Sequence record: GQ981382
DNA length: 64,000 nt
Origin: Shigella phage SP18
Direction: 5' to 3' (one strand)
In this document: positions 25,731 through 42,375 of the stretch, one piece after another
How the letters are laid out: each line of letters starts with the position of its first letter
How positions within the stretch are numbered: position 1 is the stretch's first letter
The notes under the pieces: model-generated
What the model was told of the DNA's origin: nothing
What the model saw: the letters and a program-made list of their open reading frames with translations, nothing else
The model's database searches: none
Made by a program: the position numbers and the translations under genes

Positions 25731-26030
25731 TTAGAAAGAACCAGAGCCTTTAATTGTGTTCTGGCGACCTTTATTTTCTAATTCAGAATGGTCAATTTCA
25801 TATGCTTGTGCTACACCAAAAGCCTTTTTAACTTTAGCTAAAGAACCTTTAGATGTAACAATATTAAAAGTATTACCTTTGGTAAAATCAACCAAATCCA
25901 CTTGTACACCTTGTTTACCGAGGCTTGCGACAATAGCATCAACATATTGTTGGTCTAAATTGCCCTGGACTCCAATTTGGAATGCTTTAGGAGCTTTAGC
26001 TTCTGTGATAAATTCTTGATAAGTTTTCAT
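25731..26030 (-). CDS. Internal-protein-like capsid-targeted protein (MKTYQEFITE N-terminus)
   Basis: N-terminus MKTYQEFITEAK matches the T4 IPI/IPII/IPIII capsid targeting sequence with a protease-type ITE site. Confidence 0.7.
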   Translation of the reverse strand: MKTYQEFITEAKAPKAFQIGVQGNLDQQYVDAIVASLGKQGVQVDLVDFTKGNTFNIVTSKGSLAKVKKAFGVAQAYEIDHSELENKGRQNTIKGSGSF

Positions 26031-26038
26031 TTATTCTC

Positions 26039-26078
26039 TCCAAGTTGATGGGATAATTATGCACTATCCCATCAAAAA
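26039..26078 (-). promoter_or_regulatory. Early-promoter/stem-loop cassette (PeSL-like)
   Basis: 9-bp inverted repeat gatgggata/tatcccatc with minus-sense TATAAT-like loop. Confidence 0.45.
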
Positions 26079-26086
26079 GTAAACAG

Positions 26087-26350
26087 TTATGCTTTACCGC
26101 CAGAAACAATACCAAAGGTCTCAAAGTCCCATTCAATATCGTCAACATCAACTTTCTTACCAGCAACCACGAATGCGATTTCGCGACGTTTTGCATAGGT
26201 GACAATTTCTTTACCGTCACCACCAAAGAAAGAATAACCATTGCGCTTCATGGTGCCAAAGTCTTCAGCATCACCAGCAAACGCGCGGACTTTAAAGGAA
26301 CCGGCAGGAGCTTTAGTAGATTCAGTAATAAATTCTTGATAAGTTTTCAT
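26087..26350 (-). CDS. Internal-protein-like capsid-targeted protein
   Basis: N-terminus MKTYQEFITESTKA. Confidence 0.7.
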   Translation of the reverse strand: MKTYQEFITESTKAPAGSFKVRAFAGDAEDFGTMKRNGYSFFGGDGKEIVTYAKRREIAFVVAGKKVDVDDIEWDFETFGIVSGGKA

Positions 26351-26363
26351 AATGTCTCTTTAA

Positions 26364-26678
26364 TTACTCTTTAGGGAAATCGCGCAAAAACGCATCATAA
26401 AGTTTATTACCAATGCGACGGAATGCTTTTGCCGCATGAACGTTATCCGGATTTGCAATTTTAATTTGCATTACATGACTACCGGCCCATGATTTGGCTT
26501 CATCATAATAGCCTTTAATTTCTTTAATAGTCTTACGTTTTCCGCCAGGACCATCAACAGTAATTTTCCACGAACCGGTGCTTGTTTCACTTGGTGGGGT
26601 TAATTGTTCAATCCAGACATAACCGCCTTCAACACGTTTTTGGGTAGATTCAGTAATAAATTCTTGATAAGTTTTCAT
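26364..26678 (-). CDS. Internal-protein-like capsid-targeted protein
   Basis: Start moved to internal Met giving MKTYQEFITESTQ; conserved leader DNA cagtaataaattcttgataagttttcat. Confidence 0.65.
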   Translation of the reverse strand: MKTYQEFITESTQKRVEGGYVWIEQLTPPSETSTGSWKITVDGPGGKRKTIKEIKGYYDEAKSWAGSHVMQIKIANPDNVHAAKAFRRIGNKLYDAFLRDFPKE

Positions 26679-36628: not shown

Positions 36629-36659
36629 TAAAAAAAGCCCCAACCTTTCGGAAGGGGCT
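36629..36659 (-). terminator. Rho-independent terminator (minus sense) ending the tRNA/ncRNA region
   Basis: Hairpin gcccc-aacctttcggaa-ggggc; plus-strand A7 gives U-run in minus sense. Confidence 0.55.
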
Positions 36660-36665
36660 ATACCT

Positions 36666-36960
36666 TGTCGGGGTTCCACCTGCAAGGCAAGTGTTTGTAC
36701 GAAACGCCGGGATTCGAACCCGGTTATTAAGCAGTTGACGCTACTCAATATTTTTAAAAGGCCATATCTCGACCATATCCGAACGTTCCGTCAAAAACGC
36801 TACTCGGCTTACGGCAAAGATATTTCCTCGAATCGATAATTCGGTGCGCCGTTTCAGCTGTGAGATAAGGGACTTTAAGAGGTCAACTCATGTACGCCTT
36901 AAAGTCGGGTCTTATTCAGGGAACTTCAGTCCGACGACTTACCGGTAGCGACCCGGTTTC
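36666..36960 (-). ncRNA. Structured non-coding region with tRNA-like T-arm; candidate stable RNA(s) (T4 rnaC/rnaD-like position)
   Basis: About 290 nt without an ORF next to the tRNA cluster; minus-sense CCGGG-TTCGAAT-CCCGG T-arm at 36700-36724 but no canonical cloverleaf found by eye. Confidence 0.3.
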
Positions 36961-37448: not shown

Positions 37449-37542
37449 CAATTCTATTATGAAAGGCTCTTTGAGGGAAGAACCTTTGGTAATAGAGGGT
37501 ACTTATTAATAATAACACATAACTCTTAAAGCATATTACTTG

Positions 37543-37944
37543 TTAACCTTCATCAACAATAGTATGTGTATTGGCATTGACAATCTGCCACCAGTCAAAA
37601 CGGTTGGAACCATAACAAGGCTTCTTCTCGTTTTCTTTAATGATAACGCGCAGTTCATCTTCAGTCGCAGCCTTTGCGATTAAGTCAGCATAACCGCCAC
37701 GAGGATAATAGCTATCACCCGCGAACAAAAGGAAATTTACCTTCCCAGAAGGGATATAGGCTTCCTTTGGATACTTGTTTCCTGCATGGTCTACCACTTC
37801 AATATAACGATAAGGAATATCAGTATTTTCAATCCATTGCCACGCCGCGGCAGGAGAATCAAAAGCATCTACACCTAAACGGTTATCTTCATCTTTAGAC
37901 GGGTTATTTTCATAATCCGCATATACATAATATTCAACGTTCAT
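37543..37944 (-). CDS. Hypothetical protein (133 aa)
   Basis: ORF track. Confidence 0.5.
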   Translation of the reverse strand: MNVEYYVYADYENNPSKDEDNRLGVDAFDSPAAAWQWIENTDIPYRYIEVVDHAGNKYPKEAYIPSGKVNFLLFAGDSYYPRGGYADLIAKAATEDELRVIIKENEKKPCYGSNRFDWWQIVNANTHTIVDEG

Positions 37945-38140
37945 TATTCACCTTTAGAGATTTTATCCATAACGAAAGAGATTGAACCAATTAAAAATGC
38001 AACTACTAAAGAGATTATATTCTCAGAAGTTGAAAGCATATTCAACATAAAGCCAGCAAACATGCTAAAACCAAAAAGCGGTAACAGCAACAAGGGCAGT
38101 AACATTTCTAATTAATTCGCAACGTTTCATTTTATTCTCC

Positions 38141-38187
38141 TCAGTAGTTGATGGGATAATCATACTACAGTTATCCCATCACGTACA
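38141..38187 (-). promoter_or_regulatory. Early-promoter/stem-loop cassette (PeSL-like)
   Basis: ctcctcagtagttgatgggataatcatactacagttatcccatcacgtacact; 10-bp inverted repeat. Confidence 0.45.
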
Positions 38188-38466
38188 CTAAATTTTTGTA
38201 TATTGTCCAGCTTTAACTTTTTTCAGTTCACGAGGGCTTACCGCGTAAGTGAATGGAGCATTCCAGGAAGAACTGACTTTGTAACCTTTAGTCAACATCA
38301 TTGCTGAAACTTTCTTGTTATCAGGACCGTTTTCGCCTTTAACAAGAAACAACTCAAATGCGCCACCATCAACCGGTTTGGCCTTAACCATCAGATATCC
38401 TTTCAGGTCTTCCAGCATATCCGGGTGACTAATTGATTCGTTAATAAATTCTTGATAAGTTTTCAT
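38188..38466 (-). CDS. Internal-protein-like capsid-targeted protein
   Basis: N-terminus MKTYQEFINES. Confidence 0.7.
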   Translation of the reverse strand: MKTYQEFINESISHPDMLEDLKGYLMVKAKPVDGGAFELFLVKGENGPDNKKVSAMMLTKGYKVSSSWNAPFTYAVSPRELKKVKAGQYTKI

Positions 38467-38470
38467 TAGT

Positions 38471-38520
38471 AGCTCCAGTAGTTGATGGGATAATTATACT
38501 GCAACTATCCCATCACGTAC
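38471..38520 (-). promoter_or_regulatory. Early-promoter/stem-loop cassette (PeSL-like)
   Basis: agtagttgatgggataattatactgcaactatcccatcacgtacat. Confidence 0.45.
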
Positions 38521-38529
38521 ATTACATTT

Positions 38530-38812
38530 TTACATTTTTGAACCACGAATTACACCATAAGCGGCGAAGTCGTCAGAAATATCTTTAGGAGAGTTCTTAC
38601 CAGTTTCAATGAAGGCAATGCTTGACTTCTGACTAAAAGAGGTAATTTTGTTATAGTTGGAGTCAAGGAAGGTATAACCATTTTTACGCAGCTGGTCAAA
38701 GTCTTCAGCGTCGCCTTTACCTTTGAAGTCAACCCATTTGTAGGTGTTTTTCTTCTGAAGACCCAGAGGCCAGGTAATTGTTTTCTACCAAAAATTCATG
38801 AAAAGTTTGCAT
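38530..38812 (-). pseudogene. Internal-protein-like gene interrupted by a +1 frame change at an A5 run
   Basis: N-terminal frame MQTFHEFLVENNYLASGSSEEKHLQMG stops; the adjacent frame continues ...WVDFKGKGDAEDFDQLRKNGY...IAFIETGKN... paralogous to the 26087-26350 product; removing one A restores a 93-aa ORF. Confidence 0.5.
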
Positions 38813-38820
38813 TTGAAATC

Positions 38821-39093
38821 CTATTTTAGATAAATTGCGTATTTTTTATAACCAGCCGTCTCATGACGGAGACCCTTGTCATTGGCAAAACGCTCAATGT
38901 TATTAATTTGGTTCTGGTCAAGTTCTGAAATGTCAAACGCGAAAAAGTTGCGTTTGTTACCAATTGTTATATGGTCAGTCAAGTCAATGCTATACAAGTG
39001 ATTGATATTGTCAATCATAGCTTTGACTGCTTTACTAATTTTTACTTCTTCGTTCAGTTGGGACTCGTTGAAAAATTCATTGAAAGTTTTCAT
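38821..39093 (-). CDS. Internal-protein-like capsid-targeted protein
   Basis: N-terminus MKTFNEFFNES; late-promoter motif TATAAATA 11 nt upstream. Confidence 0.65.
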   Translation of the reverse strand: MKTFNEFFNESQLNEEVKISKAVKAMIDNINHLYSIDLTDHITIGNKRNFFAFDISELDQNQINNIERFANDKGLRHETAGYKKYAIYLK

Positions 39094-39101
39094 AAGAAAC
39101 C

Positions 39102-39434
39102 TTATTTATAAAGTTTTGCCAGTTCTTTACGTCCACGAGCAGACATAATAAATTGTTCATCGCCAATTTTAAAATAAGCCATACCACCGTCAACAGCGAT
39201 ACCAATTTCTTTAGTACCTTCTTTGCCTTTCCACTTGCCACCAGATTTCAGGACAGCTTCAACTGCAGCTTTGGAATATTTGGACGTTTGAAAACGTTCA
39301 TTACCAATCTGAAAGAAAACACCATCTGCATTTTTGGTTAAACCAAATTTCAGAGAGCCTTCACTATCATCAATTGATTTGGTCTCATTGATGGCGGATT
39401 CGGCTAAAAACTCGTTGTAAGTTTTGACGCTCAT
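39102..39434 (-). CDS. Internal-protein-like capsid-targeted protein
   Basis: Start at internal Met giving MSVKTYNEFLAES. Confidence 0.6.
   Translation of the reverse strand: MSVKTYNEFLAESAINETKSIDDSEGSLKFGLTKNADGVFFQIGNERFQTSKYSKAAVEAVLKSGGKWKGKEGTKEIGIAVDGGMAYFKIGDEQFIMSARGRKELAKLYK
39103..39110 (-). promoter_or_regulatory. T4-type late promoter TATAAATA (minus sense)
   Basis: Plus-strand tatttata is TATAAATA in minus sense, upstream of ATG 39093. Confidence 0.5.
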
Positions 39435-39494
39435 TTTAACTCCGTTTGTTCGTTGGTGTAGGAACATATTACTGCACCTACACTCATTTGTACA

Positions 39495-40182
<688 letters not shown>

Positions 40183-40183
<1 letters not shown>

Positions 40184-40860
40184 TATATTACCTTATTAAT
40201 TTTATCAAAAAGTTCATCGAGTGTGCCATCGTTTTTAATAACAATGTCACTAGCTAGTGGTGGAAGTCCAGCTTCCGTAATGTGTGTATCAGTAGAATGA
40301 TTTGCTTCATCGCGTTCTACAAAGATTATTGTAGCACCCATCGCCCGAAGCGAATCAAGTTCGTTCTTTTGGCGAACATCTGGGACAACGTAATATTTAT
40401 ATCCAGAATAGAGGTTGTCAAGATAGTTGCATGCAAAAGTTTTAATCCAAAACATGCTGTCGAACTCTGTACAAACGATGTCAGTTCCAAGGGTCTGCAT
40501 GAAACGTCTAACTGTCCAGGGCTCAACATTATTTAGTGTGTGAAATTCAATAATTTTACGAACCATATCTGGATTCGGAAGGTCAAGATTGTATTGTTGT
40601 TTCAACCATTCAAGAGCATCAACCAGAAGAATATAAGCTTCGGTGTTGTTCATTATCAAGGTTTTTTCACGGTCATAACCTTGTCCATCAAAATTTTCCA
40701 GGGTCAAATTGTGTGGCAGGTCTTGACGAATCCACGCGTTATAAAGCGCTTCTTTAATCGGACCTGCAAGCTGCCACTTTGTTCCATTTTGACTAATAAC
40801 ATAATCAGCAGTCGTATCTTTACCACTGCGTTTTTTACCCACAATCGCAATTAATTTCAT
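40183..40860 (-). CDS. 1: Deoxynucleoside monophosphate kinase gp1
   Basis: 225 aa; P-loop GKKRSGKDTTADY, QLAGPIKEAL, DTHITEAGLP match recalled T4 gp1. Confidence 0.9.
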
Positions 40861-41457
40861 ACGTTTCTCATAGATGGATGCATTGACTTAGACCTGATTT
40901 CCTGTTGCATTGCTGCATTACTATCAATCTGTGGTCTACCTTCTATTATTATACCATCAATTTCTACAGCAAAAGACTTAAAGTTGAAAGTTGCTGTTGC
41001 GTTGATAGCGGGGTCAGAATCTTCTTTATATGAATACTGAATCTCTGACAGGTCGGACGGCCATGCTCCATAGTAATGGATTGACATGACAATTTTGTCC
41101 TTGTTGTTATCTAAGATATGAAGCGTAACCGCTTCAGGACGACCCTTTGGATGCCATGCTTTTGATTCGTGTGTGATGTAGTTGTTGAGCGAGAGCATCC
41201 ATTTATAGATATCAAGCCATGCTCTTAAGTCTTTGTCGCACAGAAAGTTAACAATCAACGGGTCGAATTCTATTGTACTACCAGGAAGACTGGAGCGATT
41301 TATACCTTGTGTTCCCCCAGGGACATCCGTCACAGGAATGTGAACTCCTGGAAGGGTAACGTCTTGAACGTTGAGTTTAAAGGTCTGTGTGAGGTTTGAA
41401 TCGCTTACCTCTAATATAAAGTTAGTCGTGTTAGTTTGATTATATAAACCTGACATA
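40857..41457 (-). CDS. 3: Tail completion/sheath stabiliser gp3
   Basis: Position between genes 1 and 2; start set at the MSGLYNQTNTTNF Met (track ORF has an unlikely 59-aa extension). Confidence 0.7.
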
Positions 41458-41541: not shown

Positions 41542-42375
41542 TTATGAATTTCTCCAAACTTTTTGTGCAGAGAATTTTTTGCCTTTGCTGTAAAAAGCTT
41601 GCAACGGAAGCATAACAACGTTTGCCCAGTCACTGGGCTTGATTTCAGTGATAGTACCTTTTATATTGCCAGGTATATATGCTTTAATCATCTGGTCAGC
41701 CCCTTTAAATCCCTTCACCTTTGACCAATCAATTTTCAGATGAGTCTTGTTCGTAATCGTAGGAGTATTAGCATATTGCTTAAGAAGTTCCTCAAGGAAC
41801 TCTTGACGCGCCTTCGGCGGAATATAGTGCAAGTTCAAACCATACATCAAATTGTGCTTACCTAGCCCAAGATAAATGATTAACGGATATTTGTCCCAGT
41901 ACGGAAGAGTATCCTTATGCTTTGCATCATAGATATAAGCATAAATTTTACCCGGTTGAGGTTTAGCCGTTACGTGGCCACGAACTGATTTCTTAATTGT
42001 CTCAGCGAACCATCTGGCAGATTTGGTGTTGCTTGCTGCACCTTCGTTAGCAATCTTATCTCTTATGCTCTTTCTAAAGCTATTCACCATTATCAGCTGG
42101 CGTTCAGCCTTCGTAAGTTTACCAGCAGGTTTCTTTTTGAGTTTGGATACTTTATAAGCAGTCTGAATTCTCGAATTGTATCTTGACATGCTTTTGGTAA
42201 AGGTCGAATAGTTGATTCCTTTCTCTTCAGCAAACTTCTTCGAAGTCATTCCCTTTTCTTTTGCTGTATAAAATTCAACCCCTATCTCAACCCATTGTTG
42301 TTCGGATTTACTGGGTTTTGGACCTGGTTTATCTGCAGATTCATTGATAAATGTAAAAATACTCATCCTTTCCAT
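41542..42375 (-). CDS. 2: DNA end protector protein gp2
   Basis: 277-aa basic protein; synteny 4-2-3 as in T4. Confidence 0.75.

Follow-up and report, generated by a model that had tools for sequence, protein, structure and literature searches.

A hypervariable ipI-type locus in Shigella phage SP18 with four candidate internal-protein genes in PeSL-bounded cassettes

The ipI slot of T-even phages and its counterpart in SP18

The two loci that encode the internal proteins (Ips) of T-even phages are now regarded as a hotspot of anti-defence genes. In T4, a different type IV restriction enzyme of the GmrSD family is inhibited by each of Ip1, Ip2 and Ip3 (PMC12373910; Silas et al. 2025), and these authors think that the proteins of the two loci likely all target different GmrSD variants (PMC12373910). 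The capsid targeting sequence (CTS) is the only common part of the diverse T-even Ips (PMC3012670). For packaging, approximately the first 10 residues of T4 IPIII are sufficient, with positions 4 and 7 being key to targeting and positions 8 and 10 to processing (PMC9026906), and the protease gp21 cleaves after a glutamate, for example in ITE, LTE or LIE (PMC5694885). Short promoter early stem-loops (PeSLs) mediate modular shuffling (PMC2839356, PMC4122927; Arbiol 2010, Comeau 2014), and reporter fusions have been made only for the RB49/phi1 elements (PMC2839356). In the T4 record, a single ipI gene lies between 57B and trna.4. Here, the same slot is described in Shigella phage SP18 (record GQ981382), of which a stretch of 64,000 nucleotides, called the window, was analysed. 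All positions refer to this window.

The region 38188-39434 on the minus strand is flanked by 57B/Acb1 and a tRNA.4 homologue. Since this is the site of ipI in T4, the region corresponds to the classical ipI locus. It is probably a hypervariable ipI locus of a VR7-like phage, in which four Ip genes reside in PeSL-bounded cassettes, three of them intact and one, g3, inactivated. The four genes are the following.

39102-39434, minus strand: g1 (VR7ORF156c family), 110 amino acids, N-terminus MSVKTYNEFLAE-S, phrog_3966 (7e-34)
38821-39093, minus strand: g2 = ip9, 90 amino acids, N-terminus MKTFNEFFNE-S, phrog_7673 'internal head protein' (1.7e-56)
38530-38812, minus strand: g3, a pseudogene (VR7ORF154c family; 99 amino acids when intact), the intact form matching phrog_2667 'internal head protein' (2e-21)
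38188-38466, minus strand: g4 (VR7ORF153c family), 92 amino acids, N-terminus MKTYQEFINE-S, phrog_15565 (1.4e-46)

A megablast search with 37500-40900 matched 624 phage records. The top match was Escherichia phage 212 (97.6%), and the VR7/VR20 group (genus Gaprivervirus, Tevenvirinae) was about 95% identical over the same region; by this comparison the phage is a VR7-like T-even phage of the genus Gaprivervirus. The set of genes at the locus is not the same in VR7, VR20, VR26, RZ, EAWsc9, phage 212 and the window. VR7, VR20 and VR26 carry ip6, in VR26 and RZ ip5 replaces g3, and further cassette combinations are found in RZ and EAWsc9.

A reading made from the sequence alone had proposed four genes starting with MKT(Y/F)(Q/N)EF at the place of ipI, upstream of 57B. 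The position and the number of genes hold, but only g2 and g4 fit that motif, and the genes are upstream of 57B only in plus-strand coordinates; by transcription they lie downstream. The internal-protein assignment stands as far as it refers to the ipI slot, the CTS and the PHROG and GenBank labels of g2 and g3, but not for the late promoter that came with it. The distinctness of the payloads was confirmed, since these are mutually unrelated and the tag is the sole part they have in common.

CTS-type N-termini and the weighing of packaging

The amino-terminal ends of the predicted proteins were compared with the CTS. They read MSVKTYNEFLAE (MSV-KTYNEFLAE) in g1, MKTFNEFFNE in g2, MQTFHEFLVE in g3 and MKTYQEFINE in g4. 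All four resemble MKTYQEFIAE in that position 4 is aromatic and position 7 a phenylalanine, where g1 is counted from Lys3 because its motif starts with an offset of two residues (MSVKTYNEF); g3 has a glutamine at position 2. A (L/I)-x-E motif follows as LAE12 in g1, as LVE10 in g3 (with an additional LAE16 in the intact form) and as INE10 in g4, whereas the tag of ip9 ends in F-N-E10 with Phe at P3 instead of Leu or Ile. Each product would thus consist of a CTS of 10-12 residues ending in x-E and an unrelated payload of approximately 80-100 residues. The predicted trimmed forms have 82 (g4) to 98 (g1) residues, with isoelectric points of 9.3 for g1, about 6.3 for ip9, 8.8 for g3 and 9.5 for g4.

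When the window was searched with the tag pattern, seven open reading frames (ORFs) were found, all on the minus strand and all within the two ip clusters: four at 38188-39434 and three at 25731-26678. In 200 first-order Markov resamples, a mean of 0.015 such ORFs was expected. Over the seven genes and many genera the tag is conserved as protein, with synonymous and conservative changes.

The locus shares several features with the known T-even Ips (T4 Ip1/IPI, Ip2 and Ip3, and Ip4 to Ip10 and beyond of T2, T6, the RB phages and K3): the slot, the CTS with a putative Glu cleavage site behind it, the small size, the unrelated payloads and the polymorphism between strains, and g2 is ip9 itself. 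It differs from them in having four genes where T4 has one, in the offset of the g1 tag, and in that g1 and g4 carry no Ip annotation in the examined records.

By analogy to T4, the PeSL promoters would transcribe the genes from the onset of infection and the proteins would build up until head assembly, when the CTS may bind to the scaffolding core of the prohead. The prohead protease gp21 would then cleave after the Glu of (L/I)-x-E, and the mature payloads of 9-11 kDa would stay with the packaged DNA and enter the next host by injection. There they might act at time zero, most likely against type IV restriction of the GmrSD family or other first-line defences. Short homologies for the gain and loss of cassettes and for their movement between the ip loci could come from the PeSLs and from the DNA encoding the CTS, which is nearly identical.

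Several observations speak against this interpretation. CTS-less payloads of the ip9 type, 66-72 residues long, are encoded by siphoviruses of the Guernseyvirinae and of Seuratvirus, so the payload can function without packaging. The tag of g1 is displaced by two residues, ip9 has the Phe at P3, and the VR7 ip9 has a Leu at CTS position 7; for ip9, processing or targeting may therefore differ. Open-access searches on 'Ip9' and VR7 yielded no paper describing these proteins and no virion proteomics or injection data, which means that packaging is deduced from the tag. In the sequence search no homology of the four proteins to T4 Ip1 was found, which makes the role against type IV enzymes an extrapolation. 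The four proteins fall in PHROG 3966, 7673, 2667 and 15565, against which T4 IPI itself was not placed. A phmmer search of PDB sequences with the four proteins gave two chance-level matches (8eoz_B and 8gz7_B) and no internal-protein chain, the presence of IPI* in that set being unchecked. In Pfam, the four proteins had no match except one sub-threshold hit. Finally, no U-tract follows the PeSL hairpins, so their activity as terminators is uncertain.

Alternatively, some or all of the four could be early accessory proteins that are not packaged, with the tag DNA retained chiefly as a linker for recombination or a relic. The untagged ip9 homologues in unrelated phages would suit this, as would the early promoters on the genes, the 'hypothetical' status of g1 and g4 in the examined records and the deviating tags, including the Gln at position 2 of g3. 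We nevertheless regard it as quite improbable, for the tag is conserved at the level of the protein across seven genes and many genera, the key targeting residues are present in all four proteins with x-E at the expected distance, and divergent relatives of ip9 retain the tag (MKFNEFLTEA..., MKSFKEYLTES..., MKTFQEFLNEA...) while the payload identity falls to 35-38%. Packaged internal proteins therefore remain our preferred explanation for the four genes.

PeSL cassettes, the g3 deletion and the proposed late promoter of ip9

The gaps between the genes were inspected with a custom hairpin scan and by direct reading of the sequence. Three hairpin cassettes were detected.

39435-39494, minus strand: PeSL-1, TGTACA at 39494-39489, 17-nt spacer, TAATAT at 39471-39466, Shine-Dalgarno sequence (SD) GGAG at 39443-39440
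38467-38529, minus strand: PeSL-2, TGTACG at 38521-38516, 17-nt spacer, TATAAT at 38498-38493, SD GGAG at 38476-38473
38131-38187, minus strand: PeSL-3, TGTACG at 38187-38182, 17-nt spacer, TATGAT at 38164-38159

In all of them a stop codon is followed by TGTAC(A/G), 17 nt, a -10 box inside a stem-loop of 7-11 bp, CAAC, SD and ATG. The stem-loops span 39483-39456 in PeSL-1 (RNA fold -14.8 kcal/mol, z -3.5), 38515-38483 in PeSL-2 (-18.3 kcal/mol, z -4.5) and 38181-38149 in PeSL-3 (-15.9 kcal/mol); as RNA, the three hairpins have z values of -3.3 to -4.5. PeSL-2 and PeSL-3 are 86% identical over 63 nt. A generic sigma-70 and terminator scan missed the promoters because the -35 box deviates from TTGACA, and it did not flag the hairpins either.

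From their layout, these cassettes are the published PeSLs, which are putative early-promoter elements. As in the published cases, an early sigma-70-like promoter overlaps a stem-loop between the stop codon and the next SD-ATG, variable genes are flanked, and indels between close relatives occur at the elements. The -35 box is TGTAC(A/G) here, compared to TTTACW reported for the T4/PST pair, and the stem (TGATGGGATA/TATCCCATCA), with no U-tract behind it, is lineage-specific. T4 ipI is flanked by two elements of this kind. The ip6 cassette of VR7 and VR20 falls between the counterparts of PeSL-2 and PeSL-3 and is absent in the window.

The order on the minus strand is PeSL-1, g1-ip9-g3, PeSL-2, g4, PeSL-3 and tRNA.4. 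The PeSLs precede g1, g4 and tRNA.4, so the hairpins that the sequence-only reading had placed before others of these genes were found for g1 and g4; g2 and g3 have none. Since g2 and g3 start 8 nt past the preceding stop codon, g1-ip9-g3 looks like one early operon.

The frameshift in g3 that had been suspected from the sequence was confirmed. In the alignment with VR7, VR20 and phage 212, g3 lacks 17 nt (ACCTGGC[A/G]GAAGCAAAA), which correspond to one copy of a 7-nt direct repeat and the 10 nt between the copies; a lone ACCTGGC is left at 38769-38775. The remaining product is a peptide of 27 amino acids (38729-38812), and no start codon is available in the payload frame. None of seven database phages aligned across the site had the deletion, since each of them needs two pieces spanning 108 nt against the 91-nt query. 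In VR7 and its relatives, g3 is annotated as 'internal head protein'.

A second frame-breaking indel was found in the neighbouring tRNA.4 homologue, and in 4.4 kb aligned to phage 212 these two are the only ones that are uncompensated. Both might be sequencing or assembly errors, in which case all four ip genes would be intact in the actual phage. In favour of this, the g3 deletion is missing from the seven aligned records and from VR7 and VR20, and the other indel, an additional T in a T-run, is only about 700 nt away. However, the loss of an exact repeat copy with its 10-nt spacer is the signature of slippage or microhomology and atypical of a base-calling error, and both indels hit dispensable genes. 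Weighing this, we find an error possible but rather doubtful; the direct-repeat signature favours a real deletion.

The paralogy of g3 to the protein encoded at 26087-26350 in the other cluster, also noticed beforehand, was borne out. The intact form from phage 212 is 31% identical to it (E 2e-16) over the whole payload, with a common core of GDAEDF, (R/K)(K/R)NGY, IAF and GK. The low identity indicates that this paralogy is real but old and does not reflect a recent exchange of modules. The idea that payloads were exchanged between the clusters gains support from other genera, in which Ip families are found at either locus, in the 57B-tRNA.4 slot or in the e/denV region, but not from this old pair. 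The g3/26087 family is located just after denV in the Tequatrovirus phage 132. The product of the gene at 25731-26030 in the window shares 48% identity (E 3e-27) with F27_0148, a neighbour of 57B in the Mosigvirus F27. Comparison of these positions supports that Ip families move between the two ip loci. A second paralogy between the clusters was considered for g1 and the protein of 26364-26678, which both match phrog_3966 over the full length, but BLASTP and hhalign showed that they share only the 11-residue tag. It was therefore rejected.

The late promoter proposed for ip9 refers to one motif.

39103-39110, minus strand: TATAAATA box, an exact 8-mer consisting of the g1 codons TAT AAA and the TA of the stop codon

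The sequence-only reading had described a perfect late-promoter motif 11 nt before the ATG of ip9. The exact TATAAATA is present, but 9 nt separate it from the ATG, and it overlaps with the ribosome-binding site AAGG. Since T4 late transcripts begin approximately one helical turn past the box (PMC2988020), the leader of a late ip9 mRNA would be about 3-4 nt long and contain no SD. At the clear intergenic late promoters in the window (53422 and 59946 on the plus strand, 42848 on the minus strand), 27, 18 and 28 nt separate the box from the ATG and an SD lies downstream of each. In the window TATAAATA occurs 6 times against 5.65 expected and is not enriched.

As a working gp55-dependent late promoter, the box would provide ip9 with late expression of its own for packaging and give the locus a dual timing. 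It sits at a gene junction and is an exact coding-strand 8-mer, which it has in common with the T4 late promoters (gp55/gp33/gp45-dependent), and the chance that a box falls in the roughly 30 nt before any of the four genes is about 0.005 by our estimate from the window-wide rate. It is also kept in the close relatives checked (VR7, VR20, phage 212, RZ and EAWsc9), but these are 95-98% identical, so the conservation tells little. In contrast to the T4 late promoters, the box is part of the terminal codons of a gene, too near to the ATG for a ribosome-binding site, and it is not kept at ip9 of other genera: in IME08 the ATG is preceded by GAATAAAA, and in F27 ip9 has its own PeSL. The g1 homologues of other genera end at the protein level in ...FK instead of ...YK, so the box is probably missing there as well. 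Lastly, the T4 genes ipI, ipII and ipIII are listed as having early RNA and late protein (PMC9697503, supplements), which implies that late availability needs no dedicated late promoter, and the proposal of dual timing by such a promoter was not upheld. A functional late promoter of ip9 is therefore unlikely in our view; going by the codons it contains, the TATAAATA of the g1/ip9 junction most likely arises incidentally from the sequence coding for the g1 C-terminus.

Another TATAAATA was observed inside gene 1 at 40394-40401 (minus strand), where VR7, VR20 and phage 212 have it too. A box inside gene 1 also occurs in F27 and, at a different position, in T4. By its location, the box at 40394-40401 could serve 57A as a late promoter, and transcripts from it might read through into the ip genes.

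Payload families, meaning of the locus and neighbouring genes

The g1 protein begins with MSVKTYNEFLAES. Its structural model shows a tag helix and two beta4-alpha repeats of four strands and a helix each, with a predicted local distance difference test score (pLDDT) of 75.7; the other four models were weaker (pLDDT 52-65). It is matched by an independent BFVD model for the orthologue from PEi26, and an internal sequence repeat supports a duplication. The two modelled repeats resemble the fold of the Whirly/PUR-repeat proteins (MRP1/MRP2, Pur-alpha, plant Whirly and SsgB), whereas the sequence identity of g1 to these fold matches is only 4-13%, g1 has no Pfam match and the model is of moderate confidence. 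A Whirly/PUR-like fold predicted for the g1 payload is a lead toward nucleic-acid binding, short of a demonstration.

The examined records list g1 as 'hypothetical protein' and in one case as 'profilin', and its start varies: 366 nt (121 amino acids) in VR7 (NC_014792, VR7_gp156) and VR26, 333 nt in VR20 and phage 212. The longer VR7-style start at ATG 39467 was rejected here, as no SD precedes it and it is located within the PeSL loop, in overlap with the -10 box. GGAG stands at a proper distance from ATG 39434, and judged by this the 333-nt start is the better call. In Citrobacter phage Merlin, a gene of the g1 family is located between the endolysin gene and denV.

The ip9 family comprises 8 clusters at 50% identity. 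The gene is annotated ip9 in VR7 and VR20, RB15 Ip9 is among the homologues, and the payload is modelled as a small alpha/beta protein. Untagged relatives were found in Escherichia phage CR01 (Guernseyvirinae), where WKW35203 has 72 amino acids, is encoded at 2507-2725 of its record beside a helicase module and is 50% identical to the ip9 payload, and in Seuratvirus ECP2304, where an unannotated ORF at about 1983-2270 of its record is 41% identical to the ip9 payload. In Escherichia phage OLB35, a protein named 'ip7' (77 amino acids) has 36 C-terminal residues that are 78-80% identical to ip9, while by eye its N-terminal part resembles the family of 25731-26030 and F27_0148. Its composition suggests that 'ip7' is chimeric and that recombination occurs inside the payloads as well as at the cassette borders.

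The g4 gene is restricted to the VR7 lineage, as it was found in 16 phage records, all VR7-like, with a single other cluster at 90% identity among 5.8 billion proteins. It is annotated only as 'hypothetical protein' in the records examined.

The locus, the tag and the PeSL cassettes belong to the established biology of T-even phages, and the same genes have already been deposited for VR7 and its relatives. Modest leads are added by the untagged ip9 relatives in siphoviruses and the fold predicted for g1. Two further readings are conceivable, although we consider them rather doubtful. After injection, g1 may act as a Whirly/PUR-like protein that binds single-stranded nucleic acid, and would then be an internal protein whose target is DNA or RNA and not a restriction enzyme. 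The ip9 payload may be an early accessory protein that a grafted 10-residue tag has turned into a pre-packaged, co-injected one; the tagged members of its family in T-even phages and the untagged ones in siphoviruses would then represent natural tag grafting and offer a route to the target of the payload. As T4 Ip1-3 each disable a different GmrSD, every uncharacterised Ip is a candidate for inhibiting some defence variant not yet known. The locus offers three intact candidates (g1, ip9 and g4) and the natural knockout of g3, which could help to explain differences in host range among VR7-like therapeutic phages.

The order of genes on the minus strand is gene 1, 57A, 57B, the four small genes, tRNA.4, tRNA.3 and three tRNAs. 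The Rfam search near the locus detected the three tRNAs only. The neighbouring features are as follows.

40183-40860, minus strand: gene 1, deoxynucleoside monophosphate kinase
39950-40183, minus strand: 57A
39495-39950, minus strand: 57B/Acb1 anti-CBASS phosphodiesterase, the conserved left border, Pfam PF23474 (E 1.3e-59), 57B in VR7
37944-38130, minus strand: tRNA.4 homologue, the right border, broken by an extra T near 38077

A known anti-defence gene, 57B (Acb1), thus directly adjoins the ip cassettes; its RefSeq label is still 'RNA ligase'. The tRNA.4 homologue is split into ORFs of 32 and 53 amino acids by the additional T in a T-run when compared to VR7, VR20 and phage 212, and is the second disrupted accessory gene besides g3.

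Downstream of the tRNAs, a stretch of approximately 330 nt at about 36630-36960 (minus strand) has no ORF. It contains a tRNA-like T-arm motif, GGTTCGAATCCCGG, and a GC hairpin with a T-run at its end, and had no Rfam match at E values up to 0.01. Its counterparts in T4 may be the small stable RNAs encoded in the tRNA region.

At 41586-41598 (minus strand), just upstream of gene 3, a +1/-1 pair of indels 12 nt apart was observed in comparison with phage 212 and VR20. This compensated frameshift, probably near the end of gene 2, would alter a few residues.

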